Shown here piece by piece: positions 23,721 to 41,453 of a stretch of DNA of 54,567 nt (its first letter is position 1; every line of letters begins with the position of its first letter). The position numbers were made by a program, and so were the translations under genes. Origin of the DNA: Anaerolineae bacterium. Lineage in GTDB: Bacteria; Chloroflexota; Anaerolineae; B4-G1. A model generated the notes under the pieces. That model worked only from the letters and a program-made list of their open reading frames with translations, ran no database searches and had not been told where the DNA came from. The stretch lies in NCBI GenBank assembly GCA_016931785.1, contig JAFGED010000206.1, forward strand, positions 1 through 54,567. The letters run 5' to 3'.

Positions 23721-25859
23721 ATGAGATGGATCGAGTCGCTCGCTCAACGCCCCTGGGTGCGCCGCGCTTTCCCTGCGGCGCTTTTCGTCATAGCTTTTCT
23801 CCCTCGCGCCCTTCAGCCGGTCTCCCGCCCCCTGGTTTGGTATCTGCGCTCTGCGCACTTCATCGACGCGGTGCTGGCGGGTGACTGGGGCAACACCGTC
23901 TACTCGGAGCATCCAGGCGTGACGCTGATGTGGCCGGTGGCGATTGGCCTGAAGCTCTATTGGGCGCTCTCCGGCGTCACGCCGGCGGCGGAGAGCCTGT
24001 CGCCCGATTTCGAACCGATCCACTTTTTCGGCCCGGTGCCTGTGACAGAGATCGCCGCTGCGCTGCTGCCGTTGGCGCTGCTGATCTCGCTCTCCATCGT
24101 GGTGGCCTACTTTCTGCTGCGCCGCCTCTTTGGCGGGACGATCGCCGCTGTCGCCGGGCTGCTCCTGGCCACCAGCCCCTACTACCTGGCCCAGTCCAAG
24201 ATCCTCCACCTGGATGCGTGGATGGCGACGTTGATGTTGCTCTCGGCGCTGGCGCTGCTCTTGTATTGCCGCGAGCACCGCATGCGTTGGCTGATCCTCT
24301 CCGCCGTGCTGGGCGGGCTGGCGCTACTGGTAAAACCTACTGCTCTCTTCCTCGTGCCTTTTAGCGGTCTCGTTTTGCTCGTTCAGGCAATCCGCGACCG
24401 GCAGCCCGTTTTACGTTTTACGCTTTACGTTTCACGTTCTCTCTTCGCTTGGCTCCTCCTCGCCGCCCTCGTCTACTTTGCCCTCTGGCCCGCGATGTGG
24501 GTGGACCCCGTGCGGGCGCTGAAGGCGGTCGAATCCGGGTTGGCCCATCACGCCAGCACCGCTCACGATACGCCGACCTTTTACCTGGGGCAGGTCACGT
24601 ATGATGATCCGGGGCCGGGTTTCTATCTCGTGGCGATGCTCTTTCGCACCGGCGAGATCGAGCTGCTGTTTGCGGGTGTCGCGGCGGTTGCGGGGGGCAT
24701 CTACCTGCTTCGCCACAGGCGACTATCGCAGGCCGGGGTAGACTATCTGCTTCTCCTGGCCTTTGTCGTCTTTTTCCTGGCCCAGATGAGCCTGGGGGCC
24801 AAAAAGATGCCGCGCTATGTCCTTCCGGCTATCCTGGCGCTGGACGTGCTGGCGGCGGCGGGCATCGTCGCCTGGGCGCGCGCGCTGGCAGGCCGCGGGC
24901 TCCGACTGGCGTCGGCTTTGATGTCGCTCCCTCTGCTGGTTCAAGCGGTGCTTGTCCTGCCGCTTCACCCCTACTACGGCACAGCCGCCAACTGGCTGGC
25001 CGGCGGCCCACAGGCTGCCGCTCGCGCCATCCTCACCGGTGAGGAAGGGGAAGGGCTGGCGGAACTGGCTGCGACGCTCAACGCTCGCCCCGAGGCCGAG
25101 AGCACGACCGTCGCCGCGCAGCTCAAGCACGTGTTCAACCAATATTTCCGTGGCGCCACGCTGGATATTTACGAGCGGCCCGCCGACTATTTCGTCTTTC
25201 ATCGCAACTATACCGGGCGCGATTACAAGGTCGAGCAGTGGGGCGAGCTGTGGGAGCGATACGCCGCCCGCACGCCGGAGCGGGAGGTCGTCTTTGGCGG
25301 CGCGCCCTACGCCTGGCTCTATCCAGAGCTTTCTCCCGGCGCGTCGCCCGAGCACGCGCTGGAGGTTCGCCTGGGCGATCAGCGCCGCTTTCTGGGGTAC
25401 GACCTGCGCTCGACAGAGGTCGCTCCTGGGGATCGCGTGCCCGTCGTCCTCTATTGGCAGTCGACGGAGCTGGTCGCCGACGACTTGAGCGTTTTCCTCC
25501 ATCTCCTGAATGGCAGCGGCGAGTTGGTCTGGCAGGACGATGGGGCCGCCGCCCACGGCGCGCGGCCTACCTGGGGCTGGGAGGCCGGCGAGGTGATCGT
25601 CGATCCCCATACGCTGCCGCTGCCGCGGGACTTGCCTGAGGGAAATTACCTACTCGTGGTGGGCCTCTACGATTGGCAGAACGGGGAGCGGTTGCCTGCC
25701 TTTACACCGGCGGGCGAGCGGTTGGCCTACGACCAGGTCGCGGTAGCGACTTTTGCCGTGCGGCGGCCTGGCACCCACCCGATGGCTTGGGTCGCGCGGG
25801 TGGTGGGGGGATTGGTGTTACTTTCTTCATTGATGACGATCAGGAGGCGCGATGAGTGA
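23721..25859 (+). CDS. Type-A GT-C-like membrane protein, one shared module plus C-terminal TM anchor
   Basis: ORF 23715..25859 (TTG). ATG 23721 (MRWIESL) is preferred. VSRPLVWYLRS..YSEHPGVTLMW..SPYYLAQSKILHLDA. Module FLGYDLRS..VVLYWQS..LSVFLHLLNGSGELVWQDD..RPTWGWEAGEVI..GNYLLVVGLYDWQNGERL. Tail TM VVGGLVLLSSLMTI. Confidence 0.88.
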   Translation: MRWIESLAQRPWVRRAFPAALFVIAFLPRALQPVSRPLVWYLRSAHFIDAVLAGDWGNTVYSEHPGVTLMWPVAIGLKLYWALSGVTPAAESLSPDFEPIHFFGPVPVTEIAAALLPLALLISLSIVVAYFLLRRLFGGTIAAVAGLLLATSPYYLAQSKILHLDAWMATLMLLSALALLLYCREHRMRWLILSAVLGGLALLVKPTALFLVPFSGLVLLVQAIRDRQPVLRFTLYVSRSLFAWLLLAALVYFALWPAMWVDPVRALKAVESGLAHHASTAHDTPTFYLGQVTYDDPGPGFYLVAMLFRTGEIELLFAGVAAVAGGIYLLRHRRLSQAGVDYLLLLAFVVFFLAQMSLGAKKMPRYVLPAILALDVLAAAGIVAWARALAGRGLRLASALMSLPLLVQAVLVLPLHPYYGTAANWLAGGPQAAARAILTGEEGEGLAELAATLNARPEAESTTVAAQLKHVFNQYFRGATLDIYERPADYFVFHRNYTGRDYKVEQWGELWERYAARTPEREVVFGGAPYAWLYPELSPGASPEHALEVRLGDQRRFLGYDLRSTEVAPGDRVPVVLYWQSTELVADDLSVFLHLLNGSGELVWQDDGAAAHGARPTWGWEAGEVIVDPHTLPLPRDLPEGNYLLVVGLYDWQNGERLPAFTPAGERLAYDQVAVATFAVRRPGTHPMAWVARVVGGLVLLSSLMTIRRRDE

Positions 25860-28128
25860 GCGAATGGCGCACTGGGTGCTGGCGGTCATCCTGATCCTCT
25901 TCGTGTGCCTTGGGCTGGCCTACGCCTTCACCACTCCCACGCTGGAAGCCCCCGACGAGATCCATCACTACGACTATATCCGCAGCCTGGCCAACACCGG
26001 CGGCCCGCCGGGGATAAAAGAGGGTGAAAAGAGCTTTAGCAATCACGCGCCGCTGTACTATGCGATCGGCGCGCTGGGCTCGTTTTGGGTCGGGGAGAAC
26101 GACCTTGATGCCTGGCGCGCGCGCTACAACCCCTTCTTTGGCTACCGGTTCGGCGACGTAGGGCGGGATAACAAGAACATCTACCTTCACCCCGACGACG
26201 ACCGTTTTGGCGCGAGCGATACCTGGCTGGGCGTCCGCGTGGTGCGCGCGCTTTCGGTGCTGATGGGCGCGGTGACGGTCTGGGCTACCTTTCGTGTCGG
26301 GCGGGAGGTGTTCCCCGAGCAGCCGGAGATGGCGGTGGGGGCTGCGGGCCTGGCGGCCTTTATCCCCGAGTTCCTCTTCATCTCCGGGGCGGTCAACGAC
26401 GATAACGGCGCGGCCCTCTTCGGCGCGCTGGCCCTGTGGGCGATGGTGCGCATCCTGCGCCAGGGTTTCAACGCGCGCCGCTGTTTGGGACTGGGACTGG
26501 CTCTGGGCCTGGGCTTGCTCTCCAAGCTGACGGTGATCGCGCTGCTGCCGACGGCGGGCCTGGTGGTGATCCTGGCCGCGTGGCGGAATCGATCCTGGCG
26601 CGAGATGGTTCTTTGGGGACTCGTCATCTTTGGTGTGGCGGCGTTGATCGGCATGCCCTGGTTCGTCCGCCAGGTCCTGCTTCACGGCGACCCCATCGGC
26701 CTATCGCAGGAGCAGGAGGGGTTTGGGGAGCCGGAGCGCGCGCCTTCCCTGGCCGACCTGTGGCCCGATCTCTATTGGCTGCGCACCTCATTCTGGGGCC
26801 GCTTGGGCGCTAACCAGATTCCTCTCTCAAGGTGGATCTACGTCGCACTGGATATCGTCACGCTGGTGGCCCTTGGAGGCCTCGTGCGGTGGATCGTGCT
26901 CCGGCGCGGGTCCATCCGGTCCCCAATCGTTCGACCGGGCGCTCACGCCGAAGTCTCCAATCTCCGATCTCCTTCTGCCGTTCGTACGTTACAGCTAACG
27001 GTTCTGGCAGTTGCCTTTCTCTTTACCTTCGGCCCCATGGTCGTGCGCCGCTTCCTCCGGCCGATGCCCAACTTTGGGCGCTACCTCTTTCCGGTGCTGC
27101 CGGCCATCGTGCTGCTTCTGTTCACCGGCTTGCGGGCCTGGCTGACCCGCCGCTGCCCCCCTCGCCTGGCCTTGAGTGTCACGGCTGCGATGCTGATGTT
27201 GGGGGTCGCCGCGCTGGTCTTTTTCCTGGCGCCGGCCTACTCTCGCCCACCTATCTACGATATTGCAAGCGCGCCGCAGCCGGAGCACCGGTTAAACTGG
27301 GTCTACCTGGAGGGGGAGCACCCCTTGGCTCGCCTTCTCGGCTACGATCTCGCTCAGGATGAGGTCGAGCCGGGCGAGACGCTGCGCGTGGTCCTGTATT
27401 GGGAGGCGCTGGCGGATACCGACGTCAACTACGTCCTCTTCGCACAGCTTTTCGGGCGGCAGGCGGCGACGGTGGGGCAGCGGGATACCTACACCGGCTT
27501 GGGACACTATCCCCCGTCCTTCTGGAAGCCCGGCCAGGTGATCGTCGACGAGGTGTTTATCCCCGTTGCCCCGGACGCTTTCGGCCCCAGCAAGCTGCGG
27601 CTTGACGTGGGCCTCTACCGGCGGGAGAGTGGAGAGCGGCTGGACGTGGCGGATGCGGCGGGTAACCCGGTAGGCGCGGCGACGATCGGCTGGCTGAAGC
27701 TGGCCGCGATGAAAGAGCTTCCCGCCCCCGAGGCCGCCACCGACTACCGGTTTGGGGACGGCATCGCCCTCGTCGGCTACGATCTGGAGGAGGATGGTCA
27801 AGAGCTGCGCCTCATCCTGCATTGGGCCTCCCTGGCCCCGGTGGATCGGGATTATACCGTCTTTGTGCACCTGGTCGGCCCGGATGGCGCGCTGGCCCAG
27901 GCCGATGGCCCACCCGCAGGCGGCGACTACCCGACCTCCCTGTGGGAGTATGGCGAGATCGTCTTTGACGAGCGGTCGATCCCCACGCAGGATTTGCCCG
28001 CGGGCACGTATCACCTGCGCCTGGGGATGTATCTCCTCGAGACCGGCGTGCGGCTGCCTGCCCTCGATACCAGCGGCGAGCGCCTGCCCGATGACGTGGT
28101 GGAGCTGGTGGAGGTGGAGCGGCCGTGA
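25852..28128 (+). CDS. Type-C PMT_2/ArnT-like GT-C glycosyltransferase with two shared C-terminal modules
   Basis: ATG 25852 follows AGGAGG (25842-25847) and overlaps the upstream gene by 8 nt. MSERMAHW.., first loop TLEAPDEIHHYDY, NHAPLYYAIGAL. Modules LLGYDLAQ..VVLYWEA.. and LVGYDLEE..LILHWAS..DYTVFVHLVGPDGALAQADGPP..YPTSLWEYGE. Confidence 0.9.
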   Translation: MSERMAHWVLAVILILFVCLGLAYAFTTPTLEAPDEIHHYDYIRSLANTGGPPGIKEGEKSFSNHAPLYYAIGALGSFWVGENDLDAWRARYNPFFGYRFGDVGRDNKNIYLHPDDDRFGASDTWLGVRVVRALSVLMGAVTVWATFRVGREVFPEQPEMAVGAAGLAAFIPEFLFISGAVNDDNGAALFGALALWAMVRILRQGFNARRCLGLGLALGLGLLSKLTVIALLPTAGLVVILAAWRNRSWREMVLWGLVIFGVAALIGMPWFVRQVLLHGDPIGLSQEQEGFGEPERAPSLADLWPDLYWLRTSFWGRLGANQIPLSRWIYVALDIVTLVALGGLVRWIVLRRGSIRSPIVRPGAHAEVSNLRSPSAVRTLQLTVLAVAFLFTFGPMVVRRFLRPMPNFGRYLFPVLPAIVLLLFTGLRAWLTRRCPPRLALSVTAAMLMLGVAALVFFLAPAYSRPPIYDIASAPQPEHRLNWVYLEGEHPLARLLGYDLAQDEVEPGETLRVVLYWEALADTDVNYVLFAQLFGRQAATVGQRDTYTGLGHYPPSFWKPGQVIVDEVFIPVAPDAFGPSKLRLDVGLYRRESGERLDVADAAGNPVGAATIGWLKLAAMKELPAPEAATDYRFGDGIALVGYDLEEDGQELRLILHWASLAPVDRDYTVFVHLVGPDGALAQADGPPAGGDYPTSLWEYGEIVFDERSIPTQDLPAGTYHLRLGMYLLETGVRLPALDTSGERLPDDVVELVEVERP

Positions 28129-30455
28129 GCGAGCGGGCGGCGCGTTGGTCTCTGGCCTTGATCGTGATGGGCTACCTGGGCTTGGGCGCGGCCTACAGCC
28201 TGGTCAATCCCGTCTTTGAAAGCCCGGACGAGGCGCTGAACTATGCCAACGTCCGCTTCTTTGTCGAGGAGCGGAGCCTGCCGGTGCTGGAGCCGGACGA
28301 GGTGAGCAAGGCGCACCACCCGCCGCTTTACTATGTCCTCGGGGCGCTCGTCACCTTCTGGGTGCCCGACGAGAACTTTGACGCCATCGTCGCGCGGACG
28401 AACCCCTTCTGGGCGTATCGGCTGGAGCCCGGCGTGGACAACAAGAGCCTGTACCTGCACGATCCCGCGCTGGAGGGCTTGCGCGACGCAGCCCTGGGGG
28501 TTCTCTTGGTGCGCTGGCTTTCACTGCTGATGGGGGCCGGGACGATCCTCTGCGTGTACGGCACGGCGCGGGAGCTATTTCTGCAAAGGCGGGCGCTGGC
28601 GGTGAGCTCGGCAGCGCTGGTGGCCTTCAACCCGATGTTCCTCTTCATCAGCGCGTCGGTCCACGACGACCCGCTGGCGAATCTGGTGGCGGCAGGCGTG
28701 CTGTGCGTGACCGCGCGGATTCTGGCGCGCGGCGCGACGGTGCGGCGGGCCGTGGTTCTCGGCCTGTTGGTGGGGCTGGCCGTTCTGACCAAGCTGACCT
28801 GCCTGCTGGTGGTGCCCACCGCGGGATTGGCGTTGTTGTATGGGACTCTGACCGGGCGCGGTGCCGTGGCCGCGATTTCGCCCGTGCTTTGCACGGCGCG
28901 CGCGCGGTTGGGAAACCGCGCCTACCTTGCCGTGCGCGATGGATGGTTGCAGGTGCTCAAGGTAGGTGCAGTCGTTACCGTCGTGGCGCTCCTGGTGGGC
29001 GGGTGGTGGTTCGTGCGCAACCAGGTCCTCTACGGCGATCCCACCAGCATGGGACGCCAGGTGGAGGCGTGGGAGGATGAAAGGCCAAATGGCCCAGATG
29101 TCATTGCGGCGCTGCGCGAGCTGGGTTTCCTGCACGATTCCGCCTGGGGGGCCTTTGGCTACGGCCAGATTCCCATGCCGGGCTGGGTTTATGGATTGGC
29201 GCGGCTGCTGGGGCTGGTGGCCGTAGGCGGGCTCGTCCTGTTCTGGATACGCCGCCGGGCCGGGCGAGCCGATTGGGAGCAGCCGCCACTCGCGCTGCTG
29301 ATCGTGCTCAGCGGCCCGCTGGTGGTTTTCCTGATCGTCTTTGTCCGCATGGTCTCTATCGATACGGCCAATTTTGGCCGCTACCTCTTCGTCTCGCTGG
29401 CGTTCCTGGCCCCGCTCTACGTGCTGGGGCTGAGCGAGTGGCTGCGGCCTCGCGCCCGCCGCCGGCTGCCGCTTGGGCTGGCCGTCGCCACGCTCGCCCT
29501 GGCGCTCTTTGCCCTCCTCGGCGTGCTGCGGCCCGCTTATGCACCCCCTGCGATGCTCTCCGTCGAAAAGGTTCAGGCTTGCACCCAGGCGGCCGACCTG
29601 CGTTTCGGCGACCGCTCTGGCGGCGCGATCCATCTGGTCGGCTATGACGCCGACCGCGACCGCGTCCTGCCGGGCAGCGAGGTGGCCGTCACACTCTGCT
29701 GGCAGGCGCTCGCGCCGATGGAAGCCGACTATGTCTACTTTGTTCACGTCCTCGGCCCGCAGGAGAGCAAGGTCGGCGCGCGCGATACGCATCCCGGCCT
29801 GGGCCGCTACCCCACGAGCCGCTGGGTGCCGGGCGACGCCTTCTGCGATGTCGTGCGCGTCCCGGTGGAGCCTTGGGCGCCTGCCCCCGCCGTCTACGAC
29901 GTCGTGGTGGGATGGTATCTCTACGAGGGGGGAAAGGTCAAAGAGCACCTGCCCGCCTTCGACGCGAGCGGCGCGCCGCTTGGGCTGGTGGCGCTGGACA
30001 AGGTCAAGGTCAGGCCCGAGTCGTACGCCGCTGTCGAGGCGCCCAATCGGCTCGATGCCGACCTGGGCGGGCAGGTCACGCTGCTGGGCTACGAGGCGGG
30101 CAAGCTGGAGGTGGCCCCCGGCGATGCGGTGAGCGTCACGCTCTACTGGGCGGCCCAAGCCCCCGTGCCTGCCGATTACACCGTCTTTCTCCACCTCGCC
30201 GCACCGGAGGGGCCGCCCTACGCCCAGGCCGATGGCCAGCCTCGACACGGCGCTTATCCGACCTCCTTCTGGGACGCGGGCGAGGTCGTGCGCGATACAC
30301 GCACCATCGTCGTCCCCGCCGACCTGCCCCCGGGCGACTATCCGCTGGTGGCGGGGATGTATCTCTTGGAGACGGGTGAGCGGCTGCGCTGGCTGGCACC
30401 TGATGGGAGCGCCCAGGGCGATGCCGCGCCCTTGGCGACGCTGACTGTGCGCTGA
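28125..30455 (+). CDS. Type-C PMT_2/ArnT-like GT-C glycosyltransferase with two shared C-terminal modules
   Basis: GTG 28125 is in a GTGA overlap with the upstream stop. MSERAARW.., VFESPDEALNY, HHPPLYYVLGAL. Modules LVGYDAD..VTLCWQA.. and LLGYEAG..VTLYWAA..DYTVFLHLAAPEG..YPTSFWDAGEVV..GDYPLVAGMYLLETGERL. Confidence 0.9.
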   Translation: MSERAARWSLALIVMGYLGLGAAYSLVNPVFESPDEALNYANVRFFVEERSLPVLEPDEVSKAHHPPLYYVLGALVTFWVPDENFDAIVARTNPFWAYRLEPGVDNKSLYLHDPALEGLRDAALGVLLVRWLSLLMGAGTILCVYGTARELFLQRRALAVSSAALVAFNPMFLFISASVHDDPLANLVAAGVLCVTARILARGATVRRAVVLGLLVGLAVLTKLTCLLVVPTAGLALLYGTLTGRGAVAAISPVLCTARARLGNRAYLAVRDGWLQVLKVGAVVTVVALLVGGWWFVRNQVLYGDPTSMGRQVEAWEDERPNGPDVIAALRELGFLHDSAWGAFGYGQIPMPGWVYGLARLLGLVAVGGLVLFWIRRRAGRADWEQPPLALLIVLSGPLVVFLIVFVRMVSIDTANFGRYLFVSLAFLAPLYVLGLSEWLRPRARRRLPLGLAVATLALALFALLGVLRPAYAPPAMLSVEKVQACTQAADLRFGDRSGGAIHLVGYDADRDRVLPGSEVAVTLCWQALAPMEADYVYFVHVLGPQESKVGARDTHPGLGRYPTSRWVPGDAFCDVVRVPVEPWAPAPAVYDVVVGWYLYEGGKVKEHLPAFDASGAPLGLVALDKVKVRPESYAAVEAPNRLDADLGGQVTLLGYEAGKLEVAPGDAVSVTLYWAAQAPVPADYTVFLHLAAPEGPPYAQADGQPRHGAYPTSFWDAGEVVRDTRTIVVPADLPPGDYPLVAGMYLLETGERLRWLAPDGSAQGDAAPLATLTVR

Positions 30456-30758: not shown

Positions 30759-30789
30759 TCGGGTCCAAACCGTCGGGAAGGAGATCGAG

Positions 30790-31702: not shown

Positions 31703-34519
31703 ATGCGTTCTATGCCTTCAACCTCGGTTGTTCGTCCGGCTTCGCCTTGGATGCGCTGGGCGCTCATTTTGCTCATCGCCGTCTCCTTTGCCGTGCGTCT
31801 GTACGCTCTCGACGCCAAGAGCCTGTGGAGCGACGAGGGGCTGTCGCTCCGCCGGGCCGAGCAGCCGCTTTTCCTCATCTTCAAGAACCTCAACCTGATC
31901 CCCGTCGATCCCAATTACTACGATGGCGGCGAGGAAGGACGAATCGCGCCCTCGCCCGATCTCCATCCACCGCTTTACTTTTTGATGATGCGTTTTTGGA
32001 TTTGGATGGCGGGGGAAAGCGAGTTTGCGCTGCGTTTTCCCTCGGCCGTGGCGGCGACTCTGGCGCTGCCGCTGCTCTATGCCCTGGCGCGCAGGCTCCT
32101 GGGAGCGGAAACGGGACTTTGGGCGGCGCTGCTGGGGGCGGTTTCTCCTTTCTACCTGTGGTATGCTCAGGAAGCGCGGATGTACACCTGGGTCGTCGTC
32201 CTCGGCCTGGCCTCGGTCTACACACTGCTGCCGCTGCTCAAGGGCCGGCCGCGTCTCCGCGACTATGCAGTCTACACCGCGGTGACCCTGGCCCTGTTGT
32301 ACACCCACTATTCGGGTTTCCTGCTGCTGGGGTTCGAGGTGATCGTCTATGGCGTGCGCCGTCTACGCCTCCGTGCGCGCCGCCTGTGGAGTCGCCCGTG
32401 GATTGTCCTGATCGTTCTGGTGGCCCTGGCCGCGGCGCTCGTGCCCCTCGTCCCCTACGCCTGGCGCACCCTCCAACTACGCGGCATCTTTGCCCTGGAA
32501 TATCGCCCGCTGCATCTCATCCTGGCGGAGGCGTGGAGTTCCTTCAGCCTGGGGCTGCGCAACCCGGTCATCCAGCCGCTCTGGCAGACGGCCCCGTTTC
32601 TGATCGTCTTTGCCGTCGGCACAGCGGCCCTGTTCCTTTCGCGCCGGCGCGAGGCCTGGATGGTCTGCCTGGGGTACCTGCTGCTGCCGATCCTCTTGCT
32701 GTACGCGCTTTCGCTCGTCAAGCCCAACTATATGAACCCGCGCCACCTGATGGTGGTCAGCCCTGCCTGGGAGCTGGTGATGGCCTATGGCCTGGCGACC
32801 CTGCGGCGGCGGCTGTGGCCTGGGCTGCTCGTTGCCCTGGCCTGCGTGCTCGCGCTGCGTGGATGGGCGGGTTACGAGATTTTTACCTCCCACGATATGT
32901 GGAAGGACGACATCCGGGGGGCGGTGCAGTACATCGAGGAGCGCGCGCGGCCCGGCGACGCGATCGTGCTCCATCACCACGTGATCCGCCTCACGTTCGA
33001 CTATTACTACGACGGCCCTTACCCCGAGGCCGTTATCCCAATCTACTATCACGCGTATGATACCAAGGCGTTTCGCGAGAGGTCGCTGAAGGATTTTGCG
33101 GCCTGGGCGCAGGAATACGACCGCATCTGGTTCCTGTATGGCCCACCACCGACGTATTTCCCCCACGATCTCTTGCCCGATTGGGCTGGCGACAACCTGT
33201 TCAAGGTCGAGCAGCGCAGCTTTGAGGCGTGGTGGACCTACGTGGCCGTGGCGGCGTACGACGACGGCCCGCCGCTTTTCGACGTGTTGCCGGACGACGC
33301 CAGGCCCCTCGATTTGGATTTCGGTGGGCTGCGCTTGGTGGGCTACCGCGCGCCAGAGACCGCCGCCGGGGAGAATGCCTGGCTGGCGTTCTACTGGCGG
33401 AGCGAGGGGGACCTACCCGACGAGCCTCTCACGCTGGCCGTCAGGTTGCGCGACGAGGCGGGCGGCGTGTGGCTCGAGCGGACGGAGCAGGTGCTGCCCT
33501 TTTATCCGCAGGCCGCCTGGCCGGACGCCGCGATCGTGATGACCGAGTTTCGCCTCCCGCTGCCCGGCGACATGCCGCCGGTGAGCTTTGCCGTGGAGGT
33601 GACGCCGGTCGGCTGGGGAGATGCGGCGGCAGTGGGGCGATTGAGCGTGACCCGCCCTGGCGCGCGTGGCCAGGCGCCATCCCCCAAGGCGCGTTTCGAG
33701 GGGGGCATCGAGCTTTTGTCCGGCGAGTTGGCCGGCGACACGTTCCGCGCGGGGCATCCGCTGCTGGGGGCGCTCTCTTGGCGAGCCGCTGCTGCGCCCG
33801 CCGGCGACTATCGGCTGCGGGTGCGCCTCGTTGATCTGCTGGGCCGCGAGGTCGCCGCCGGGGAGATGGCGCCCAGCGCCGCCGGGTTCCCCACCAGCGC
33901 CTGGCTCCCCGACGACCGCGTGGCGGGCCACGTAGCGCTTGCCCTGCCCGCCGATCTGAAGGGGGGCGCCTACCGGCTACAGGTTGGCCTGGCGGATGCC
34001 GGCGGCGCGGCGGTGCCGGTGCGCCGCTGGTACGGCAGCAGCGACTGGGTCGCCGTGGGCCGCGTGCGCGTGGAGGCCTGGCCGCTGGAGACCAAGCTGC
34101 CCGATGGCGTCGAGTTCCTGCTGGAGGACGTGCGGCTGGGCGATGCGATTCGCCTGCGCGGCTACGATCTGACCCAGGAGGACGACGCCCTGGCGCTGAC
34201 CCTCTACTGGCAGGCGGACGCGCCGCCGGAGGCCAACTGCCACGTCTTTGTCCACGTGGGCGCGCCAGACGCGCCGCCCGTCGCCCAGGCCGATGGCGTG
34301 CCGGTCGATTGGCAGCGCCCCACGACGACCTGGCGCGCGGGCGAGGTCGTCGCCGATGCGTACACCATCTCCCTTGCCGGGGTGGAGCCGGGGCGGTATA
34401 ATCTCCTCGTCGGCATGTACGATCCGGCGGCCGGCGGGCAGCGCCCCAAGACCAGCGTGGGCGGCGAGGTCGTCCCCGGCGGGTACGTCCTGCTGCGAGA
34501 GGTAGAGGTAGCGAAATGA
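31703..34519 (+). CDS. Type-D PMT_2/GT39-like GT-C glycosyltransferase with three shared C-terminal modules
   Basis: ORF 31634..34519. ATG 31703 (MRSMPST) or ATG 31751 (MRWALILL) are candidate starts. LYALDAKSLWSDEGLSL, DLHPPLYFLMM. Modules at about 33320 (LVGYRAP..AFYWRS), 33700 (LLSGEL..LSWRA..FPTSAW) and 34130 (LRGYDLTQ..LTLYWQA..HVFVHVG..RPTTTWRAGEVV..GRYNLLVGMYDP). Confidence 0.85.
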   Translation: MRSMPSTSVVRPASPWMRWALILLIAVSFAVRLYALDAKSLWSDEGLSLRRAEQPLFLIFKNLNLIPVDPNYYDGGEEGRIAPSPDLHPPLYFLMMRFWIWMAGESEFALRFPSAVAATLALPLLYALARRLLGAETGLWAALLGAVSPFYLWYAQEARMYTWVVVLGLASVYTLLPLLKGRPRLRDYAVYTAVTLALLYTHYSGFLLLGFEVIVYGVRRLRLRARRLWSRPWIVLIVLVALAAALVPLVPYAWRTLQLRGIFALEYRPLHLILAEAWSSFSLGLRNPVIQPLWQTAPFLIVFAVGTAALFLSRRREAWMVCLGYLLLPILLLYALSLVKPNYMNPRHLMVVSPAWELVMAYGLATLRRRLWPGLLVALACVLALRGWAGYEIFTSHDMWKDDIRGAVQYIEERARPGDAIVLHHHVIRLTFDYYYDGPYPEAVIPIYYHAYDTKAFRERSLKDFAAWAQEYDRIWFLYGPPPTYFPHDLLPDWAGDNLFKVEQRSFEAWWTYVAVAAYDDGPPLFDVLPDDARPLDLDFGGLRLVGYRAPETAAGENAWLAFYWRSEGDLPDEPLTLAVRLRDEAGGVWLERTEQVLPFYPQAAWPDAAIVMTEFRLPLPGDMPPVSFAVEVTPVGWGDAAAVGRLSVTRPGARGQAPSPKARFEGGIELLSGELAGDTFRAGHPLLGALSWRAAAAPAGDYRLRVRLVDLLGREVAAGEMAPSAAGFPTSAWLPDDRVAGHVALALPADLKGGAYRLQVGLADAGGAAVPVRRWYGSSDWVAVGRVRVEAWPLETKLPDGVEFLLEDVRLGDAIRLRGYDLTQEDDALALTLYWQADAPPEANCHVFVHVGAPDAPPVAQADGVPVDWQRPTTTWRAGEVVADAYTISLAGVEPGRYNLLVGMYDPAAGGQRPKTSVGGEVVPGGYVLLREVEVAK

Positions 34520-36801
34520 GAGATCGGTTGAAGGACCATCGCGGGCTGGCCATCATCCTGGCGCTTTACGTGATCGTGGCCGTGCTGTATGGCGCGCTGA
34601 CGCCCATCTTTGAGACGCCGGACGCCAACGGCCACTATGCCTACATCCACGAATTGACCGAGGGGCGCGGTTTCCCGGTCCACGATACGCCGTCCGGCGA
34701 GCGGGTCACGGGGTACGTCGCCGGGCATCCCCCGCTTTACTATCTCCTCAGCGCCGCGGCGACCTTTTGGGTAAAGGATGACGTGGATTTTGCAGATTGG
34801 GCCTGGTTCAACCCCTTCCACGCGATGGGCAACGCCGATGCCGCGGCCAACAAGAACCGCCTCGTCCACACCGACGCCGAGGCTTTCCCCTGGCGCGGCA
34901 CGCCGCTGACGGTGCACATCGCGCGCCTGGTCTCGACCGCGCTGGGAGCGCTGGCTGTCGTGGCGGCCTACGGGATCGTGCTGGAATTCTTCCCCGAACG
35001 CCGCTGGCTGGCTTTGGGCGCAGCCGCGTTCACGGCCTTTAACCCCATGTTTCTCTTCACCGCCGCGCGGGTGAGTAACGATGCCGCCGTGACCGCCTTT
35101 AGCTCGCTCGCCGTGTGGGGCGCTGTGCGGTTGGCGATGCGCGGCCTTTCTTGGCGCGGGCTTGCGCTGCCGGGCGCAGCGTATGGCTTGGCGGCGCTCT
35201 CCAAGCTCAGCGGCGTGATCCTCGGCCCCGTCCTCCTTCTCGCGCTCCTCTTCGATGCGTGGCGTGTAGGGCACTACAAAGTCAGCCGCCTCTTCTGCAG
35301 GGATCAGCTTGCTCGTCTGCTCGCTGGCGGGGTCATCCTCTTTGGCACCACTGCCGCCGTCTGTGGCTGGTGGTTCATCCGCAACCTGGTGCTCTACGGC
35401 GAATTGATGGGCACCGATGCCTGGTTGAGCCACACCGCGACGGTGCGGGCGGACCCCATCGGATTCCTCGACGTCATCCCCCAGTTGAAAGGGTTGGAGA
35501 TGTCCTACTGGGCGATGTTCGGCTGGTTCAACGTCGCCGCAGCTTCGTGGATGTACCAGGTCTGGTGGGTGCTGGTGCGGCTGGCGGCCTTTGGTCTGGC
35601 CTCCATCCTGGTGGACCAGTGGACGGCGCGCCGGTTCCCACGCCCGTTGCAGGCCGGATTGGTGGTCGCGGCCTTTTCCCTTCTGCTGATATTCGGCTCC
35701 GTCTGGCGCTTTATCATGATCGTGTTGGGCTCCCAGGGCCGCTACCTGATGCCCGTCACTGCCGTCATCTCCATTCTCATGGTGCTCGGCCTGGATCGCC
35801 TGATCCTGCACCGCTTCACGCCTGGGCTGGCGTTGTTCCTGGGCGTGGGGCAGTTGGCGATTGCGCTGATTTGTCTCTTTGCCTTCATCCTGCCGGCCTA
35901 CGCCAGGCCGCAGTTGGTGGAGGAAAGTGCGTTGCCTGCCGACATGCTGCGCTTTGACGTGACCTTCGAGGGCACGCCGATCCAGCTCCTGGGCGGTGTG
36001 ATCGAGGCGGATGGTGTGCGGCCCAGCGAAAGCGTGGCGCTGAGCCTCTACTGGCGGGCCTTGGAGACGGTACAAAAAGACCCCATAGCCTTTGTCCAGA
36101 TCCTGGGCAAGGATGCAGAGCCCTTGGTGGGGGAGGATTGCTATCCGGGGCGGGGCAACTTTCCCGCCACGCTCTGGCAGCCGGGCGTCATCTACCGCGA
36201 CCGCTACCGCCTGGTCGTCGCCGCAGACGCCGAAACGCCCATCATCGCCGCTTTGCACGCCGGGCTTCGCTGGCAGGGCGCCGAGCGCCTCATTGGCCTG
36301 TTCCCCTCTGGTCGCCCGGTGCCCGAGCCGGTGCTCTTCGACCTGGTGGCCCTGCGCTCGATCGAGCAGCCCTCGGACAAAGTCGCCTACCCCGTGGGCG
36401 CGCGGATCGGCGACGCCATCACGCTGGCGGGATACGATATCTCTGCGCAGGAGGTGCGTCCCGGCGAGACGTTGACCGTCACGCTCGTCTGGCGCGCCGA
36501 GGGGGCTCCCGATGGGGATTACACGGCCTTCGTCCACCTGGTCGACGGGGACGGCAACCTCGTGGCCCAGGACGACCATCCCCCTTTGGGAGACGAGTAC
36601 CGCACCTCCTTCTGGGCGCGCGGCGACGTCATCCGCGATGCGTACAGCCTGACGCTGGATGAGGATCAGCCGCCTGGCGGCTGCACGCTCCTGATTGGGC
36701 TGTACGACCCGGCGGCGCAGGTGCGCGTGCCAGCCTACGACGGCCTGGGCGGGCGCTTCAGGGATGACGCCGTCATCGCGGGCGGGGTGACCGTCAGGTG
36801 A
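34516..36801 (+). CDS. Type-C PMT_2/ArnT-like GT-C glycosyltransferase with two shared C-terminal modules
   Basis: ATG 34516 is in an ATGA overlap with the upstream stop. IFETPDANGHYAY, GHPPLYYLLSAA, EAFPWRGTPLTVHIARL. Module 2 LAGYDISA..VTLVWRA..DYTAFVHLVDGDGNLVAQDDHPP. Confidence 0.9.
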   Translation: MRDRLKDHRGLAIILALYVIVAVLYGALTPIFETPDANGHYAYIHELTEGRGFPVHDTPSGERVTGYVAGHPPLYYLLSAAATFWVKDDVDFADWAWFNPFHAMGNADAAANKNRLVHTDAEAFPWRGTPLTVHIARLVSTALGALAVVAAYGIVLEFFPERRWLALGAAAFTAFNPMFLFTAARVSNDAAVTAFSSLAVWGAVRLAMRGLSWRGLALPGAAYGLAALSKLSGVILGPVLLLALLFDAWRVGHYKVSRLFCRDQLARLLAGGVILFGTTAAVCGWWFIRNLVLYGELMGTDAWLSHTATVRADPIGFLDVIPQLKGLEMSYWAMFGWFNVAAASWMYQVWWVLVRLAAFGLASILVDQWTARRFPRPLQAGLVVAAFSLLLIFGSVWRFIMIVLGSQGRYLMPVTAVISILMVLGLDRLILHRFTPGLALFLGVGQLAIALICLFAFILPAYARPQLVEESALPADMLRFDVTFEGTPIQLLGGVIEADGVRPSESVALSLYWRALETVQKDPIAFVQILGKDAEPLVGEDCYPGRGNFPATLWQPGVIYRDRYRLVVAADAETPIIAALHAGLRWQGAERLIGLFPSGRPVPEPVLFDLVALRSIEQPSDKVAYPVGARIGDAITLAGYDISAQEVRPGETLTVTLVWRAEGAPDGDYTAFVHLVDGDGNLVAQDDHPPLGDEYRTSFWARGDVIRDAYSLTLDEDQPPGGCTLLIGLYDPAAQVRVPAYDGLGGRFRDDAVIAGGVTVR

Positions 36802-39053
36802 GCCAAGTTCCAAATCTCGAGTCTCAAATCTCAAATCGCAAATCGCAAATCGCGTTGATTCTCCTCGCCTTTGTGTTGCTTGGCGTCTTTTACAGCCTCG
36901 CCACACCGCCCCTGGAGGCCTCAGACGAGTTCGACCACTACCCCTACGTCCAGTATGTGCAGACGCAGGGCGCGCTGCCGGTGATGGACCCCGCCGATCC
37001 CGACCCCTGGCGGCAGGAGGGCGGTCAACCGCCGCTGTACTACCTGCTGATGGCCGGGCTGACCTCCTGGATCGACACGAGTGACCTGGAGGACGTGCGC
37101 TGGCTGAACCATCACGCCTTCATCGGCATGCCGGACCAGGTAGGCAACAAGAACCTGATCATCCACCGGCCTGAGCGGGAGGCGTTTCCGTGGCGAGGTA
37201 CGGTCCTGGCCGTCCACGTGATCCGGCTGGGCTCGGTGGCGCTGGGCGCGGTGACGGTGTGGCTGGTGTGGCGGGTGGCGGCCCAACTCTGCCCGCAGTC
37301 CGGCTGGGCGCCCCTGGCGGCGGCTGCCCTGACCGCCTTCAACCCGATGGTCCTCTTTGTCAGCGCCGCGGTCAATAACGACGTGCTGGCGGCGCTTTTC
37401 GGCAGTCTGGCGTTGTTGATCTTGCTCAAAATCTCTGATCTCAAATCTCAAATCTCCTGGACGAGTTATCTATGGCTGGGCATCGTCCTCGGCCTGGGAG
37501 CACTGACCAAGCTCAGCCTCGCTGCGATGATCCCCCTGGCTCTCCTCGTCGTCGCCCTCCGTACCTGGCGCCAGCATACAGAGACGTCCTTCTCTCGCCG
37601 GGCAGCATGGGTCATTGCTCATTGCTCATTGATCATTACGGTGGTTTTAGCCACCGCCGGCTGGTGGTTCCTGCGCAACTGGCGCCTCTACGGCGACCCC
37701 ACCGCCGTTAACGTCTTTATGCAGATTCTGGGCTATCGGGCCGAGCCGCTGACGCTGAAGGACCTGTGGGAGGAGTTTGGGACCTTCCGCCGCACCTACT
37801 GGGGGTTGTTCGGCGGGGTCAACGTGCCTGCCCCGGAGCCGTTCTATGTCTTCTGCGACCTGCTCTCGCTGGCTGGGCTGGTTGGGCTGGCCCTGCGCGC
37901 CTGGCGGCGGCGGAGGGAGGGCATCGGCGTCTGGTGGATACCCCTGCTGTGGATCGCCATCCTTTTCGCTGCCCTCCTGCGCTGGGTGGTGATGTACTAT
38001 TCCTTCCAGGGCCGCCTGATGTTCCCCGGCATCGCCGCCCTCAGCACGTTCCTGGCCCTGGGGCTTGGGGAGTGGCTCCCGGAGCGCTGGCGTCCGGCGA
38101 TTGGGTGGGCAGTGGGTGGCGTGCTTTTGGCGCTGGCGGTGATCGTGCCTTTCGTCTCCATCCTCCCGGCCTATGAATATCCCGCGCCGCTCGCCCTGGC
38201 CGACGTGCCCGCGGAGGCGCGCGTCGAGCCGGTGGACGTGGGCGGCGTGGCCCGCATCGTGGGATGGGAGTTCGAGCAACAGGCGGTCCAACCGGGCGAC
38301 CTTGCTGCCTGCGTCAAAGTTGTGGTATACTGGGAAGCCACAGCGCCCGATGGGCGGGACTATGCCAGTTCTGGCGAACTGGTCAGCTTTGCAAAGCTCT
38401 TGGGGCGCGGGCACCGGGGGGCGGGACAGGTCAACCGGCACCCGGTCGACGGCATGGTGCCCACCAGCCTGTGGCAGCCCGGCCAGGTGTGGCGCGACCG
38501 CTACTGCGTGAAGGTCGATCCCGATGCGGCGGCCCCCAGCCTCCTGCGAGTCGAGGTGGGGTTGTACGACCCGCAGGCGGGGCAGGACCTGGGTTCGGTG
38601 CGCGTGGGGGAGGCCAAGCTGGCTCCGGCGGGAACGCAGGCTCTGCCGGATCACGCGCTGGAAGTGGAGCTGAGCGACGGGATCGCGCTGCGCGGCTACG
38701 ATCTCTCGGCCGGAAGCGTCGCGCCGGGAGAGGCAATCACGCTGACGCTCCACTGGGAGGCGCGGGGCGCGCCCTCGGCCGATTACCAGGTGTTCGTGCA
38801 CCTCGTCGGCGCCGCGCCGGAGCCAGCGGCGCAGGGGGATGGCCCGCCGCTCATGGGCGACTATCCCACGCGGGTGTGGTCGCCCGGCGAGCTCGTCGTC
38901 GATCCGCACGTCGTAACGCTGCCGCTCGATCTGCCTGCGGGGCGGTACCGGTTGCTCGTGGGAATGTACGGCCTGGAGACACTGGCACGCCTGCCCCGGC
39001 TGGACGGTGCGGGTGACTCTATCGAGATTCCTGTTCACATAGAGGTGCGTTGA
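36798..39053 (+). CDS. Type-C PMT_2/ArnT-like GT-C glycosyltransferase with two shared C-terminal modules; two heptamer-repeat insertions in the reading frame
   Basis: GTG 36798 is in a GTGA overlap with the upstream stop. An in-frame TTG at 36855 directly after the repeat tract is an alternative start. PLEASDEFDHYPY, GQPPLYYLLMAG, EAFPWRGTVLAVHVIRL. Module 2 LRGYDLSA..LTLHWEA..DYQVFVHLVG..YPTRVWSPGELV..GRYRLLVGMYGLE. Confidence 0.88.
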   Translation: MSQVPNLESQISNRKSQIALILLAFVLLGVFYSLATPPLEASDEFDHYPYVQYVQTQGALPVMDPADPDPWRQEGGQPPLYYLLMAGLTSWIDTSDLEDVRWLNHHAFIGMPDQVGNKNLIIHRPEREAFPWRGTVLAVHVIRLGSVALGAVTVWLVWRVAAQLCPQSGWAPLAAAALTAFNPMVLFVSAAVNNDVLAALFGSLALLILLKISDLKSQISWTSYLWLGIVLGLGALTKLSLAAMIPLALLVVALRTWRQHTETSFSRRAAWVIAHCSLIITVVLATAGWWFLRNWRLYGDPTAVNVFMQILGYRAEPLTLKDLWEEFGTFRRTYWGLFGGVNVPAPEPFYVFCDLLSLAGLVGLALRAWRRRREGIGVWWIPLLWIAILFAALLRWVVMYYSFQGRLMFPGIAALSTFLALGLGEWLPERWRPAIGWAVGGVLLALAVIVPFVSILPAYEYPAPLALADVPAEARVEPVDVGGVARIVGWEFEQQAVQPGDLAACVKVVVYWEATAPDGRDYASSGELVSFAKLLGRGHRGAGQVNRHPVDGMVPTSLWQPGQVWRDRYCVKVDPDAAAPSLLRVEVGLYDPQAGQDLGSVRVGEAKLAPAGTQALPDHALEVELSDGIALRGYDLSAGSVAPGEAITLTLHWEARGAPSADYQVFVHLVGAAPEPAAQGDGPPLMGDYPTRVWSPGELVVDPHVVTLPLDLPAGRYRLLVGMYGLETLARLPRLDGAGDSIEIPVHIEVR
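36812..36853. repeat. Heptanucleotide tandem repeat, 6 units (CAAATCT CGAGTCT CAAATCT CAAATCG CAAATCG CAAATCG)
   Basis: Read directly. It occupies codons 5-19 of the ORF starting at 36798 (..NLESQISNRKSQI..). Confidence 0.85.
37427..37455. repeat. Second copy of the CAAATCT heptamer repeat (4 units), in frame inside the same gene
   Basis: CAAAATCT CTGATCT CAAATCT CAAATCT, encoding KISDLKSQIS. The three paralogues have no equivalent residues at this position, which lies before the conserved LGLG.L(T/S)KL(S/T) segment. Confidence 0.8.
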
Positions 39054-39088
39054 CCAGCCCGTAACTTGCAACCTGCAACTCGAAGCTT

Positions 39089-40549: not shown

Positions 40550-40565
40550 AAGGGGAGGTGTAGAG

Positions 40566-41453
40566 ATGACCGGCAAGAGAATCGCATTGATCGTTATCGG
40601 GGTACTGGTGCTTATGGCGCTGACCACCACAGTGGTCTGGGCACAGGATGGCGATACCAATGGAGGCAGCGAAACGAGCGCGACGAACGTGCTGTTGCAG
40701 GCCCTGGCTCCCATCATCGCCATCGCCACGTCCGTCGAGCGAGGGCTGGAGATGTTCTGGGATCGCTGGGAAAAGCCCGGCACGTGGCCCAACAAGCAGG
40801 GTGTGCCGGACAGGGGTGCCCCGCAGTACATCTCGAGCAAGCAGGTAGGTTCCCACATGCTTGGGACGGTGTTTGCCTTCGTCGCCGTCGGCCTGACCAA
40901 TGCCCGTTTCTTTCGCCTGCTGGGCCTGGAGGTCCTGTTCTCCAACCTGGTGCTCTTTGACATCAACATCGGCGGCATCGTCGACGATTTCACCGTCGGC
41001 ACGTTGATCGACTGGCTGATGACGTCGGCTGTCATCGGTTGGGGTGGCACCGAGCTCACCCACAGCGTCATCGAGGGCCTGGTCAAGGGCCGCAACCTGT
41101 GGAAGGAGATGCGCGAGGTCGAGGCGGGGCGCAAGTCGATCCTGGACGCCAAGTTCTTTAACGATTACGTGGCTCCAGAGTTGGAGAAGCGGGGCGTCTC
41201 CGTGGCGATGCTGCGTGAGGCTTTCCAAGCCCTGGAATCGGCCGGCGTGTCGCCGGATCAGTTCATCAGTTCGATGACACTTGGCAAGGCGGACGCGTTT
41301 ATGAGCCAGATAGAGGCCAAGCCGGAGGCAGCTGAGGCGGCCAAGGCCGTGCGCGCGCTTTTGGATGGCGTGCCGGCCGAGAAGGCGATGGAGGTGCCCG
41401 ACGTCCTGGCTCTGTTGAGCCCCGACCTGCGACAGCGGTTCCTCGGGGCCTGA
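40566..41453 (+). CDS. Hypothetical membrane-associated protein (295 aa)
   Basis: GGGGAGG lies 8 nt upstream of ATG 40566. N-terminal signal/TM RIALIVIGVLVLMALTTTVVWAQ, with further hydrophobic segments. The C-terminal half is helical and Ala/Glu-rich. No family recognised. Confidence 0.65.
   Translation: MTGKRIALIVIGVLVLMALTTTVVWAQDGDTNGGSETSATNVLLQALAPIIAIATSVERGLEMFWDRWEKPGTWPNKQGVPDRGAPQYISSKQVGSHMLGTVFAFVAVGLTNARFFRLLGLEVLFSNLVLFDINIGGIVDDFTVGTLIDWLMTSAVIGWGGTELTHSVIEGLVKGRNLWKEMREVEAGRKSILDAKFFNDYVAPELEKRGVSVAMLREAFQALESAGVSPDQFISSMTLGKADAFMSQIEAKPEAAEAAKAVRALLDGVPAEKAMEVPDVLALLSPDLRQRFLGA

Follow-up and report, generated by a model that had tools for sequence, protein, structure and literature searches.

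In an uncultured Anaerolineales bacterium, 13 membrane sugar-transferase genes lying close together were found to encode proteins that each end in one to three copies of a single module. A polar and aromatic constellation in this module, F45-H47-Q58-D60-Y103-R110, is retained only in the last copy of each protein, and this differential conservation, with the canonical constellation confined to the last copies, is what is new. The module is a new domain family of a kind, the accessory β-sandwich on GT-C enzymes, that is already known.

The window, that is, the whole stretch of DNA analysed (54,567 nucleotides, contig JAFGED010000206.1), was searched in all six reading frames by jackhmmer, using the last 130 amino acids of g36798 as query. 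In total, 23 domains of a module of about 125 amino acids were identified (i-Evalues 5e-22 to 2.5e-56); each lies on the + strand and keeps the frame of one of 13 long ORFs (Table 1). One copy is present in g2854, g6485, g18481 and g23715, three in g31634, and two in g8702, g11074, g15696, g21209, g25852, g28125, g34516 and g36798. A preliminary description of this DNA had counted 23 copies in 13 proteins, one to three at each C-terminus, and this unbiased profile search returned the same figures. The last copy of g36798, placed there at 38668-39053, was recovered at 38661-39050; each of the 12 other copies cited was found within about 20 nt of its earlier coordinates, and the signature then proposed agrees with the consensus of two module alignments. 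The TM helix said to follow the module in type A proteins is present by hydropathy in g2854, g6485 and g23715.

Table 1. Module copies and associated TM helices of the 13 array genes, with positions in the window
Gene	Scaffold	Feature	Position	Strand	Remarks
g2854	type A	only module	4501..4884	+	site FHQDYR; profile search
g2854	type A	TM helix after module, residues 685-710	4906..4983	+	hydropathy; then second multi-TM half 4999-6411
g6485	type A	only module	8168..8536	+	site FHQDYR
g6485	type A	C-terminal TM anchor, residues 705-723	8597..8653	+	hydropathy; R/K-rich tail after
g8702	type B	inner degenerate copy	10547..10927	+	site EAQTLP; well folded in full-length model
g8702	type B	terminal copy	10964..11329	+	site FHQDYR
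g11074	type B	inner degenerate copy	13063..13437	+	profile search
g11074	type B	terminal copy	13477..13833	+	site FHQDYR
g15696	type B	inner degenerate copy	17733..18095	+	profile search
g15696	type B	terminal copy	18138..18491	+	site FHQDYR
g18481	singleton PMT_2	only module	20776..21147	+	site FHQDYR
g21209	type B	inner degenerate copy	22892..23245	+	profile search
g21209	type B	terminal copy	23297..23641	+	eroded site SRQDYV
g23715	type A	only module	25362..25745	+	site FHQDYR
g23715	type A	C-terminal TM anchor, residues 691-709	25785..25841	+	hydropathy; RRRDE after
g25852	type C	inner copy	27319..27687	+	site partly retained, FQQDYR
g25852	type C	terminal copy	27742..28116	+	site FHQDYR
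g28125	type C	inner copy	29613..30005	+	site FHADYH
g28125	type C	terminal copy	30054..30422	+	site FHQDYR
g31634	singleton PMT_2	first, most degenerate copy	33314..33682	+	profile search
g31634	singleton PMT_2	second degenerate copy	33686..34054	+	profile search
g31634	singleton PMT_2	terminal copy	34127..34492	+	site FHQDYQ
g34516	type C	inner copy	35959..36348	+	site FQGD-R
g34516	type C	terminal copy	36400..36777	+	site FHQDYR
g36798	type C	inner copy	38229..38630	+	site FKQNYD
g36798	type C	terminal copy	38661..39050	+	site FHQDYR; modelled alone, pLDDT 94

By BLASTP the scaffolds that carry the module fall into five classes rather than the four first recognised: type A (g2854, g6485 and g23715), type B (g8702, g11074, g15696 and g21209), type C (g25852, g28125, g34516 and g36798), and two singletons unlike one another, g18481 and g31634. 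Nor are they the unrelated GT-C cores for which they had been taken. PMT_2 is matched by the scaffolds of types A and C, g18481 and g31634 in Pfam; type B matches PTPS_related (E 4e-10, g8702 in its 827-aa version) and, in precomputed hits, DUF6311; hhalign joins B to A at 94% (E 1e-7) and C to A at 97%; and the full-length type B model has the GT-C fold, with Foldseek matches to AglB, ArnT and STT3B. On these grounds the scaffolds are remote homologues, of the PMT_2/PTPS_related kind with GT-C fold. They also show the conserved acid that GT-C enzymes have in the first loop outside the membrane: in type B, D38 just after TM1 is at least 90% conserved (43 sequences), and in type C, E32 and D35 after TM1 are invariant, the catalytic role of all three being only putative. 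The second half of g2854, described earlier as a GT-C unit without module, is a multi-TM region and only a possible GT-C: it has no Pfam match at E 0.01, and its hhalign probability against type C is 10%, with a motif alignment that is suggestive. Other genes of the window specify two LytR-CpsA-Psr (LCP) proteins and one Wzy_C ligase-like protein, functions that belong to wall glycopolymers, and inside the array, at 13987-15870, a secreted PKD/β-helix protein with Thr/Pro-rich linkers.

Outside the window the module is also found on proteins matching PTPS_related or TMEM260-like. Homologues of the B and C scaffolds exist that lack it, indicating that the module is an accessory. Both observations are in keeping with the earlier suggestion that the module has been shuffled among GT-C subfamilies. 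Nearest-neighbour analysis, however, shows that modules track scaffold class and position, with type C terminal copies falling to type C terminal copies in 115 of 120 cases, for example. Recent domain shuffling was rejected on this basis; modules mostly co-diverge with their scaffolds, so that any shuffling is ancient.

A single module was modelled by AlphaFold2 with pLDDT 94.2 and pTM 0.85, and DSSP assigns to the model an all-β structure of seven main strands and a short N-terminal one. As modelled, the module is an independently folding Ig/FnIII-like (E-set-like) two-sheet β-sandwich, which bears out the preliminary view of an autonomous, β-sandwich-like unit. Its nearest folds in the PDB, at TM about 0.6 by Foldseek, are the Wzt sugar-binding domain, RbmA and NPC2. 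The Wzt carbohydrate-binding domains rank best (8dky_A, with 3-O-Me-mannose, TM 0.66/0.60; 5hnp_A, TM 0.64/0.54; E 2.5e-4 to 4.8e-4). These matches are generic, with TM about 0.6 and 12-18% identity, and they extend to lipid-binding NPC2/GM2AP, GH3 FnIII domains and transglutaminase barrels. A Foldseek comparison with viral structures returned nothing informative.

The preliminary description could name no family for the module, and none was found here. There was no significant match in Pfam (two releases, by local scan and by precomputed newer hits), NCBIfam or PDB sequences, and no consistent match when full proteins and each module alone were scanned against Pfam and NCBIfam. Local hmmscan is sensitive to boundaries, since the 878-aa and 570-aa versions of g8702 yield no family and only the 827-aa version yields PTPS_related; the Pfam negatives were therefore cross-checked against the precomputed hits of the newer release. 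Isolated weak matches to Wzt_C, DUF4625, NPCBM_assoc, Big_13, BsuPI and DUF4832 indicate only the Ig-like fold class. Wzt_C is matched by 1 of the 23 modules at E 0.004 and by g8702 at E 0.11, where 13.0 bits fall short of the gathering cut-off of 30.4 bits. Profiles of 23, 105 and 6 sequences found nothing significant among PDB sequences, the best match being the Ig-like domain of E. coli β-glucuronidase (E 0.11, 105-sequence profile). Borderline plasmid matches by tblastn (E 4e-4, 60% coverage) lie inside Pseudomonas integrase genes and were judged spurious. An exhaustive HMMER search gathered 31,453 clusters at 50% identity; all named members seen are from Chloroflexota, with the module always C-terminal on GT-C enzymes. 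A literature search on PF19830/DUF6311 and on GT-C accessory domains in Chloroflexota found no earlier description. Judged by these searches, the sequence family is very large and is covered by no curated library.

The conserved constellation was examined in 801 modules. F45, H47, Q58, D60, Y103 and R110 are each present in 88-96% of terminal copies against 17-51% of inner copies, and W32 and W73 occur in 97-98% of terminal and 93-97% of inner copies. Inner copies retain only fold residues, namely the two tryptophans, glycines and prolines. Within the window the constellation is exact in 11 of 13 proteins, the exceptions being g21209 and g31634. One strand carries F45 and H47 and its successor Q58 and D60; G101 and Y103 belong to a third strand, and R110 to the loop that comes after it. 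Because the i, i+2 spacing of the six residues alternates with the conserved hydrophobics Y42/V44/L48 and Y96/L98, they probably point from the outward face of these three strands, which would share one sheet in an FnIII-type topology, and the patch is accordingly expected at the surface. They are not needed for folding, since the inner copies, too, are modelled with confidence as part of the whole protein.

Such a patch could be a protein-protein interface, docking the module onto the extracytoplasmic loops of the same enzyme or joining the paralogues, or a common partner protein, in a multi-enzyme complex, the module then being a structural or assembly domain and the inner copies spacers. 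Several features agree with this: the full-length type B model (pTM 0.83) suggests that the modules pack against the core in a defined way and are not strung out like beads, the scaffolding protein RbmA and transglutaminase β-barrels are among the fold matches of the tandem copies, Wzt carbohydrate-binding domains themselves dimerise (PMC9445017), and AftD has one purely structural β-sandwich (bioRxiv 10.1101/2019.12.22.885152). However, the same six residues occur on scaffolds dissimilar by BLAST, whereas residues in contact with the enzyme's own core should change as the core changes, so that a shared ligand is favoured over a scaffold-specific interface. Clusters of H, Q, D, Y and R are also seen more typically where small ligands bind than at contacts between proteins, and the scaffolds function in other lineages without the module. 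We regard a structural role as unlikely.

The module is probably extracytoplasmic, judging from GT-C topology and the type A TM anchor; the type A helix with its basic tail and the multi-TM unit after the module of g2854 both fit this location. By analogy with the Emb and AftD binding modules it may bind a ligand on the outside of the cell, most likely a glycan, a reading to which we give about an even chance. Precedents are the C-terminal CBM of EmbC (PMC3044687) and the three CBMs of AftD, after which the chain re-enters the membrane (bioRxiv 10.1101/2019.12.22.885152). The partner enzymes are GT-C glycosyltransferases of Chloroflexota, on this reading dependent on polyprenyl phosphate, and each has exactly one canonical copy, always the last, whose patch would bind glycan; the inner copies would most likely be spacers, or have diverged in specificity. 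Like the CBMs of EmbC and AftD, the module would keep acceptor or product beside an active site that faces outwards, and what it recognises would be a general feature of the polymer which all 13 paralogues elongate or decorate. The Wzy_C and LCP proteins encoded at the locus agree with such a polymer. Acceptor or product binding, as the preliminary description also proposed, is suggested by this analogy and by the conserved, probably exposed patch, and carbohydrate is the presumed ligand. Against a glycan counts the lack of any significant sequence link to a carbohydrate-binding family. In CBM families the binding residues usually differ from one specificity to another; a site invariant in hundreds of modules could instead bind a common ligand other than a glycan, for example a metal, a partner protein or the phosphate of a head group.

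One such ligand would be the membrane-proximal head group of the lipid-linked substrate, a polyprenyl (pyro)phosphate with its first sugar, perhaps bound through a metal. The head group is the single chemical feature that every enzyme in an assembly line would encounter, consistent with a site that is invariant across enzymes of presumably different sugar specificities; R110, H47, Y103 and Q58 would suit phosphate and D60 a bridging cation. The type A module is tethered to the membrane on both sides, the first copy in type C begins only 20-40 residues past the last TM helix, and the fold matches include the lipid-binding NPC2, ML and GM2-activator sandwiches. Yet in types B and C and in g31634 no copy is further from the membrane along the chain than the canonical one, and the disulfides and hydrophobic cavity that are hallmarks of ML domains are not evident in the sequence. 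In solved GT-Cs such as ArnT and PglB it is the TM core with its loops that binds the donor phosphate. Head-group binding is, in our view, decidedly unlikely. The remaining alternative is that the module recognises an acceptor protein. It would then act like the MIR domains of PMTs or the TPR repeats of TMTCs, in enzymes that O-glycosylate proteins. The scaffolds match PMT/PMT_2 families and the PKD/β-helix protein encoded within the array is a candidate acceptor, but PMT_2 is broad and includes lipid- and glycan-directed enzymes such as ArnT, thirteen paralogues together with the LCP and Wzy_C proteins fit polymer assembly better, and no evidence ties the module to peptide binding. This role seems improbable.

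The glycan-binding reading can be carried further, to a proposal that we hold only tentatively: the module would found a new and very large CBM family, its invariant F-H-Q-D-Y-R site would recognise a conserved feature of a Chloroflexota wall glycopolymer, and the GT-C arrays would form a mycobacteria-style extracytoplasmic assembly line for the outer envelope layers. In the Chloroflexota, an abundant phylum of mostly uncultured bacteria, the envelope is multilayered, the layers presumably consisting of uncharacterised polysaccharide or protein (PMC13319060). The module, whose clusters at 50% identity exceed 31,000, marks a large set of the extracytoplasmic glycosyltransferases of this phylum. 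As it is small and autonomously folding it should be expressible alone, and with so well delimited a candidate binding site it would be useful in practice: purified module could fish out the ligand and stain the envelope layer recognised. A new Pfam or CAZy CBM family could also be built from the module, and thousands of proteins now labelled "GT39/ArnT-like/hypothetical" could be better annotated.

Among known systems, the Ig-like domains of GH2, the FnIII-like domains of GH3 and the NPCBM_assoc/NEW3 accessory domains belong to the same fold class, and the Ig-like domain of E. coli β-glucuronidase has the motifs W-x-P-G-E and Y-x-L-x-V-G in common with the module, although its E of 0.11 is not significant; these domains differ in being mostly structural and in residing on soluble hydrolases rather than membrane GT-Cs. 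The STT3/AglB/PglB oligosaccharyltransferases, with their C-terminal globular domain, offer another comparison: AglB of A. fulgidus, the best match of the full-length type B model (971 columns, E 5.7e-9), is likewise a GT-C with β-rich peripheral units after its TM core. This similarity is carried largely by the TM core: a single module retrieves no AglB or PglB chain in Foldseek, and no motif of the WWDYG type of STT3/AglB/PglB was seen in the sequences here. Wzt_C (PF14524; 8dky, 5hnp) is the best structural neighbour of the module (TM 0.60-0.66, E about 1e-4), a β-sandwich with a sheet surface by which polysaccharide is recognised, and joined to machinery that handles polysaccharide (PMC9445017). 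It differs in being cytoplasmic, fused to an ABC ATPase and dimerised by strand exchange, whereas none of the 13 module genes has an ABC domain and the module is fused to the GT-C C-terminus; sequence identity is about 14%, and the fold similarity is moderate and common to many Ig-like folds.

The CBMs of EmbC/EmbB and AftD are also, like the module with its probable outside location, extracytoplasmic β-sandwiches after a GT-C core, present in one to several copies, some of which do not bind or are structural. After the soluble domains of AftD the chain goes back into the membrane, as in type A (bioRxiv 10.1101/2019.12.22.885152), and in the hosts of Emb and AftD, too, many GT-C paralogues build a wall polysaccharide (PMC3044687; bioRxiv 10.1101/2019.12.22.885152). 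PDB profile searches reveal no sequence similarity between these CBMs and the module, no Emb or AftD chain is among its top 50 Foldseek matches, and carbohydrate binding, unlike that of the Emb and AftD modules, is for the present module a proposal. Since Emb and AftD already show β-sandwich modules on GT-C enzymes, the advance is a new family and its anatomy, not a principle: unlike in Emb and AftD, at least five GT-C subfamilies share modules of one family, and each enzyme has one invariant site.

The + strand carries a run of long open reading frames, all in the same direction, whose genes are named here by g and their start coordinate in the window. Jackhmmer iterations seeded with the C-terminal 130 amino acids of g36798 and run on a six-frame translation of the window retrieved exactly 23 domains of a C-terminal module of about 125 amino acids, with i-Evalues from 5e-22 to 2.5e-56. 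Each of the 23 copies is read on the + strand in the frame of one of 13 genes; in array order, these genes possess 1, 1, 2, 2, 2, 1, 2, 1, 2, 2, 3, 2 and 2 modules. The repetition of one module through the 13 array proteins, reported in the preliminary description, is far above chance; the twelve further clear copies listed there were all recovered, with offsets within about 20 nt, and its module signature agrees with the alignment consensus. W32 and W73 (numbering of the last copy in the gene at 36798) are invariant in all window copies. As also described, a hydrophobic helix follows the module in all three type A proteins. Beyond it lies a basic tail, except in g2854, where a second multi-TM unit comes next. 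At five array junctions (starts 11335, 25852, 28125, 34516 and 36798) neighbouring genes share 4 or 8 nt, which suggests that they are co-translated, with translational coupling inside a single operon. Codon-position GC varies strongly along the array: GC3 is 0.59-0.65 for g6485, g8702, g11074, g21209 and the second half of g2854 (4999-13875, 21209-23692) and 0.77-0.85 for the genes from 23715 onwards (23715-41453). This heterogeneity suggests that parts of the array have different histories, for example horizontal acquisition, or different expression levels.

Features of the module array and its surroundings (window coordinates)
Feature	Position	Strand	Remark
Run of long ORFs	2854-39053	+	
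g2854	2854-6411	+	complete type A unit and second region
g2854, second region	4999-6411	+	about 470 aa
g8702	8702-11338	+	group B
Secreted protein	13987-15870	+	right-handed β-helix (NosD-like) region, two PKD domains
ZIP-family metal transporter	30790-31605	+	between g28125 and g31634
Last module copy of gene at 36798	38661-39050	+	jackhmmer
Wzy_C membrane protein	39089-40549	+	O-antigen-ligase-like
Two LytR-CpsA-Psr proteins	43087-45545	-	
225-aa ORF	47037-47714	-	GC 0.49, GC3 0.47

Regions upstream of the first module were compared by BLASTP, and the 13 genes fall into five groups: A (N-terminal half of g2854, g6485, g23715), B (g8702, g11074, g15696, g21209), C (g25852, g28125, g34516, g36798), and g18481 and g31634, each a group of its own. 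The A, C, g18481 and g31634 scaffolds match PMT_2, and profile-profile comparison links C with A (97%, E 1e-10) and B with A (94%, E 1e-7). The B scaffold matches PTPS_related when its start is trimmed: g8702 gave no Pfam match as an 878-aa or 570-aa query, and its 827-aa version (P0188) reached E 4e-10. Precomputed matches place DUF6311 on this scaffold, a family never reported by the local Pfam copy; because of these two inconsistencies, negative hmmscan results need care. The full-length g8702 model (pLDDT 93.2, pTM 0.83) matches AglB (E 5.7e-9), ArnT (TM 0.51-0.53 on target) and human STT3B. Just after TM1, B has a conserved acidic D38 and C conserved acidic E32 and D35. All five groups are GT-C enzymes of distantly related subfamilies, and this replaces the earlier count of four unrelated scaffolds. 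In g2854, an entire type A unit, with its GT-C core, module and TM helix, is followed in the same ORF by a second region with multiple TM helices. This second region has no Pfam match and resembles type C only weakly, at the level of motifs (hhalign probability of 10%); the GC of this half is 0.50, much below the 0.61 of the first half.

No curated family covers the module. The local Pfam scan of full proteins gave no match on it, and modules scanned singly at E up to 10 gave only scattered single matches to Ig-like families, the best being Wzt_C (E 0.004, one member). NCBIfam matches are confined to the N-terminal membrane regions. In a newer Pfam release, precomputed matches are empty for module-only fragments, and full-length relatives match only PMT/PMT_2/DUF6311. 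Profiles built from 23, 105 and 6 modules found nothing significant among PDB sequences; the best match (E 0.11) was the Ig-like domain of E. coli β-glucuronidase, which has W-x-P-G-E and Y-x-L-x-V-G in common. The preliminary description could name no described family for the module, in agreement with the lack of significant matches in Pfam, NCBIfam or PDB sequences.

Searched exhaustively with HMMER, 1.84 billion cluster representatives yielded 31,453 module-bearing proteins at E <= 1e-3, 22,136 at <= 1e-10 and 6,900 at <= 1e-30. The module family is genuinely uncurated and very large. The best 150 of the 31,453 possess three or four copies each, the last always within 28 residues of the C-terminus. 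Six of eight large matches sampled fit GT-C-type families (PMT/PMT_2, PTPS_related or TMEM260-like) and two fit no family; one of the eight has an additional sub-threshold YfhO match. Source names are "ArnT family", "glycosyltransferase family 39", "Gpi18-like mannosyltransferase" or "hypothetical", and the organism is Chloroflexota wherever one is given. A genome scan with the gene at 36798 found 79 loci, nearly all from Anaerolineales, Thermoflexales, Caldilineales, Ardenticatenaceae or other Chloroflexota, the closest (79-87% identity) from MAGs of uncultured Anaerolineales. Arrays of module-bearing GT-C genes are a lineage trait, since the related loci hold 342 additional modules and as many as six module-bearing ORFs in 22 kb. 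On one related metagenomic contig (L080:17410-20043), a DnaB helicase gene with an intein (LAGLIDADG endonuclease domain) adjoins a similar array.

In the window module tree, B-inner, B-terminal and C-inner copies form separate clades; the one remaining clade, at 40-49% identity, mixes terminal copies from A, C, g18481 and g31634. In a set of 351 modules drawn from this window and the related loci, the closest module in a different ORF almost always shares scaffold class and position (C terminal 115/120; C inner 109/112; the three positions of the g31634 class 22/25, 16/19 and 14/16), so the association of module and scaffold is old and vertically inherited. Terminal modules are nearly as alike between classes (35-36% identity) as within them (38-39%), and the scaffolds themselves are not BLAST-detectable between classes. 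Homologues of the B scaffold without a module exist (P0204-P0218, 550-610 aa), as do C homologues in Thermodesulfobacteriota and Proteobacteria MAGs (loci L070 and L075) that match only about residues 13-534; the latter suggest that the module is a Chloroflexota-specific addition to the type C scaffold. From this near-equal similarity and the module-less homologues it follows that gain or loss of the module with respect to the core is very ancient, and that the module is under a common constraint. The proposed shuffling holds as ancient gain or loss and not as an active process, since modules track scaffold class and position.

Modelled alone, with an alignment of the 23 window copies only, the module gives a confident all-β domain (pLDDT 94.2, pTM 0.85) of seven main strands and a short N-terminal strand. 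It is thus an autonomous folded unit, in keeping with the β-sandwich first proposed. Foldseek matches in the PDB are moderate (E about 1e-4, TM 0.5-0.66, 8-19% identity) and spread over Wzt carbohydrate-binding domains (8dky with bound 3-O-methyl-mannose, 5hnp, full-length WzmWzt), biofilm matrix protein RbmA, NPC2, GM2 activator, GH3 FnIII-like domains and transglutaminase barrels, so the module is an Ig/FnIII-like sandwich with no specific structural relative.

When 801 modules were aligned to the profile, W32 (97% of 336 terminal vs 97% of 465 inner copies), W73 (98% vs 93%) and, similarly, G12, G23, L30, P69 and G76 were conserved in both positions, whereas other residues were kept mainly in terminal copies: F45 (93% vs 29%), H47 (91% vs 17%), Q58 (88% vs 39%), D60 (96% vs 50%), G101 (95% vs 45%), Y103 (94% vs 51%) and R110 (92% vs 29%). 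The exact F-H-Q-D-Y-R site (F45, H47, Q58, D60, Y103, R110) is found in 11 of the 13 window terminal copies, the exceptions being g31634 (FHQDYQ) and g21209 (SRQDYV). It is partly retained in type C inner copies and lost from those of type B and g31634. These residues are dispensable for the fold, since inner copies still model at pLDDT above 90. They alternate in the strands with the conserved hydrophobics Y42/V44/L48 and Y96/L98, and therefore probably face outwards, away from the core. An FnIII-type topology places the three site strands side by side in one sheet, suggesting that the site forms a continuous aromatic/polar surface, with R110 in the loop that follows.

The best-supported reading, and the function we infer, is an extracytoplasmic ligand-binding domain with one functional copy per enzyme. 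Its ligand would most probably be a glycan feature that the substrates of every paralogue share, and the module would tether acceptor or product close to the active site. The patch could instead be a protein-protein or assembly interface, but it is identical on scaffolds that share almost nothing, which favours a shared ligand over a scaffold-specific interface. A shared ligand might also be the lipid-linked (pyro)phosphate head group, the only feature that every one of these enzymes truly has in common, or the module might recognise a protein acceptor.

Genes for the Wzy_C protein, the LytR-CpsA-Psr proteins, one of them fused to an anti-sigma zinc finger (zf-HC2) and adjoining an ECF sigma factor, and a nearby NAGPA-type phosphodiester glycosidase suggest that a wall glycopolymer is assembled and attached. 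The region 39089-41453 (+), downstream of the array, which also encodes a 295-aa protein of no family, and, further on, 43087-45919 (-) together resemble a regulated module for such attachment. The mid-array PKD/β-helix protein has Thr/Pro/Asp-rich linkers and could be a glycoprotein substrate or envelope component. The ZIP transporter could matter if a divalent cation is required by the GT-Cs or the module. The 225-aa ORF, with no Pfam match and a very low GC against the window average of about 0.62, may be a foreign gene or not a real gene.

Tethering of a glycan by the module, as preferred here, has counterparts in known systems. In EmbC, Trp mutations in the C-terminal CBM lead to loss of both acceptor binding and activity (PMC3044687). 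A tethering role was proposed for the three CBMs of AftD, in which soluble domains are followed by membrane re-entry (bioRxiv 10.1101/2019.12.22.885152), as after the module in type A. The Wzt carbohydrate-binding domain, the best fold neighbour of the module, uses the surface of a β-sheet to bind its sugar cap (PMC9445017). The module represents a new family within a known class of accessory domains, the β-sandwiches of GT-C enzymes. Its layout is distinctive: a single canonical site is accompanied by degenerate copies, and some proteins tether the module at both ends.
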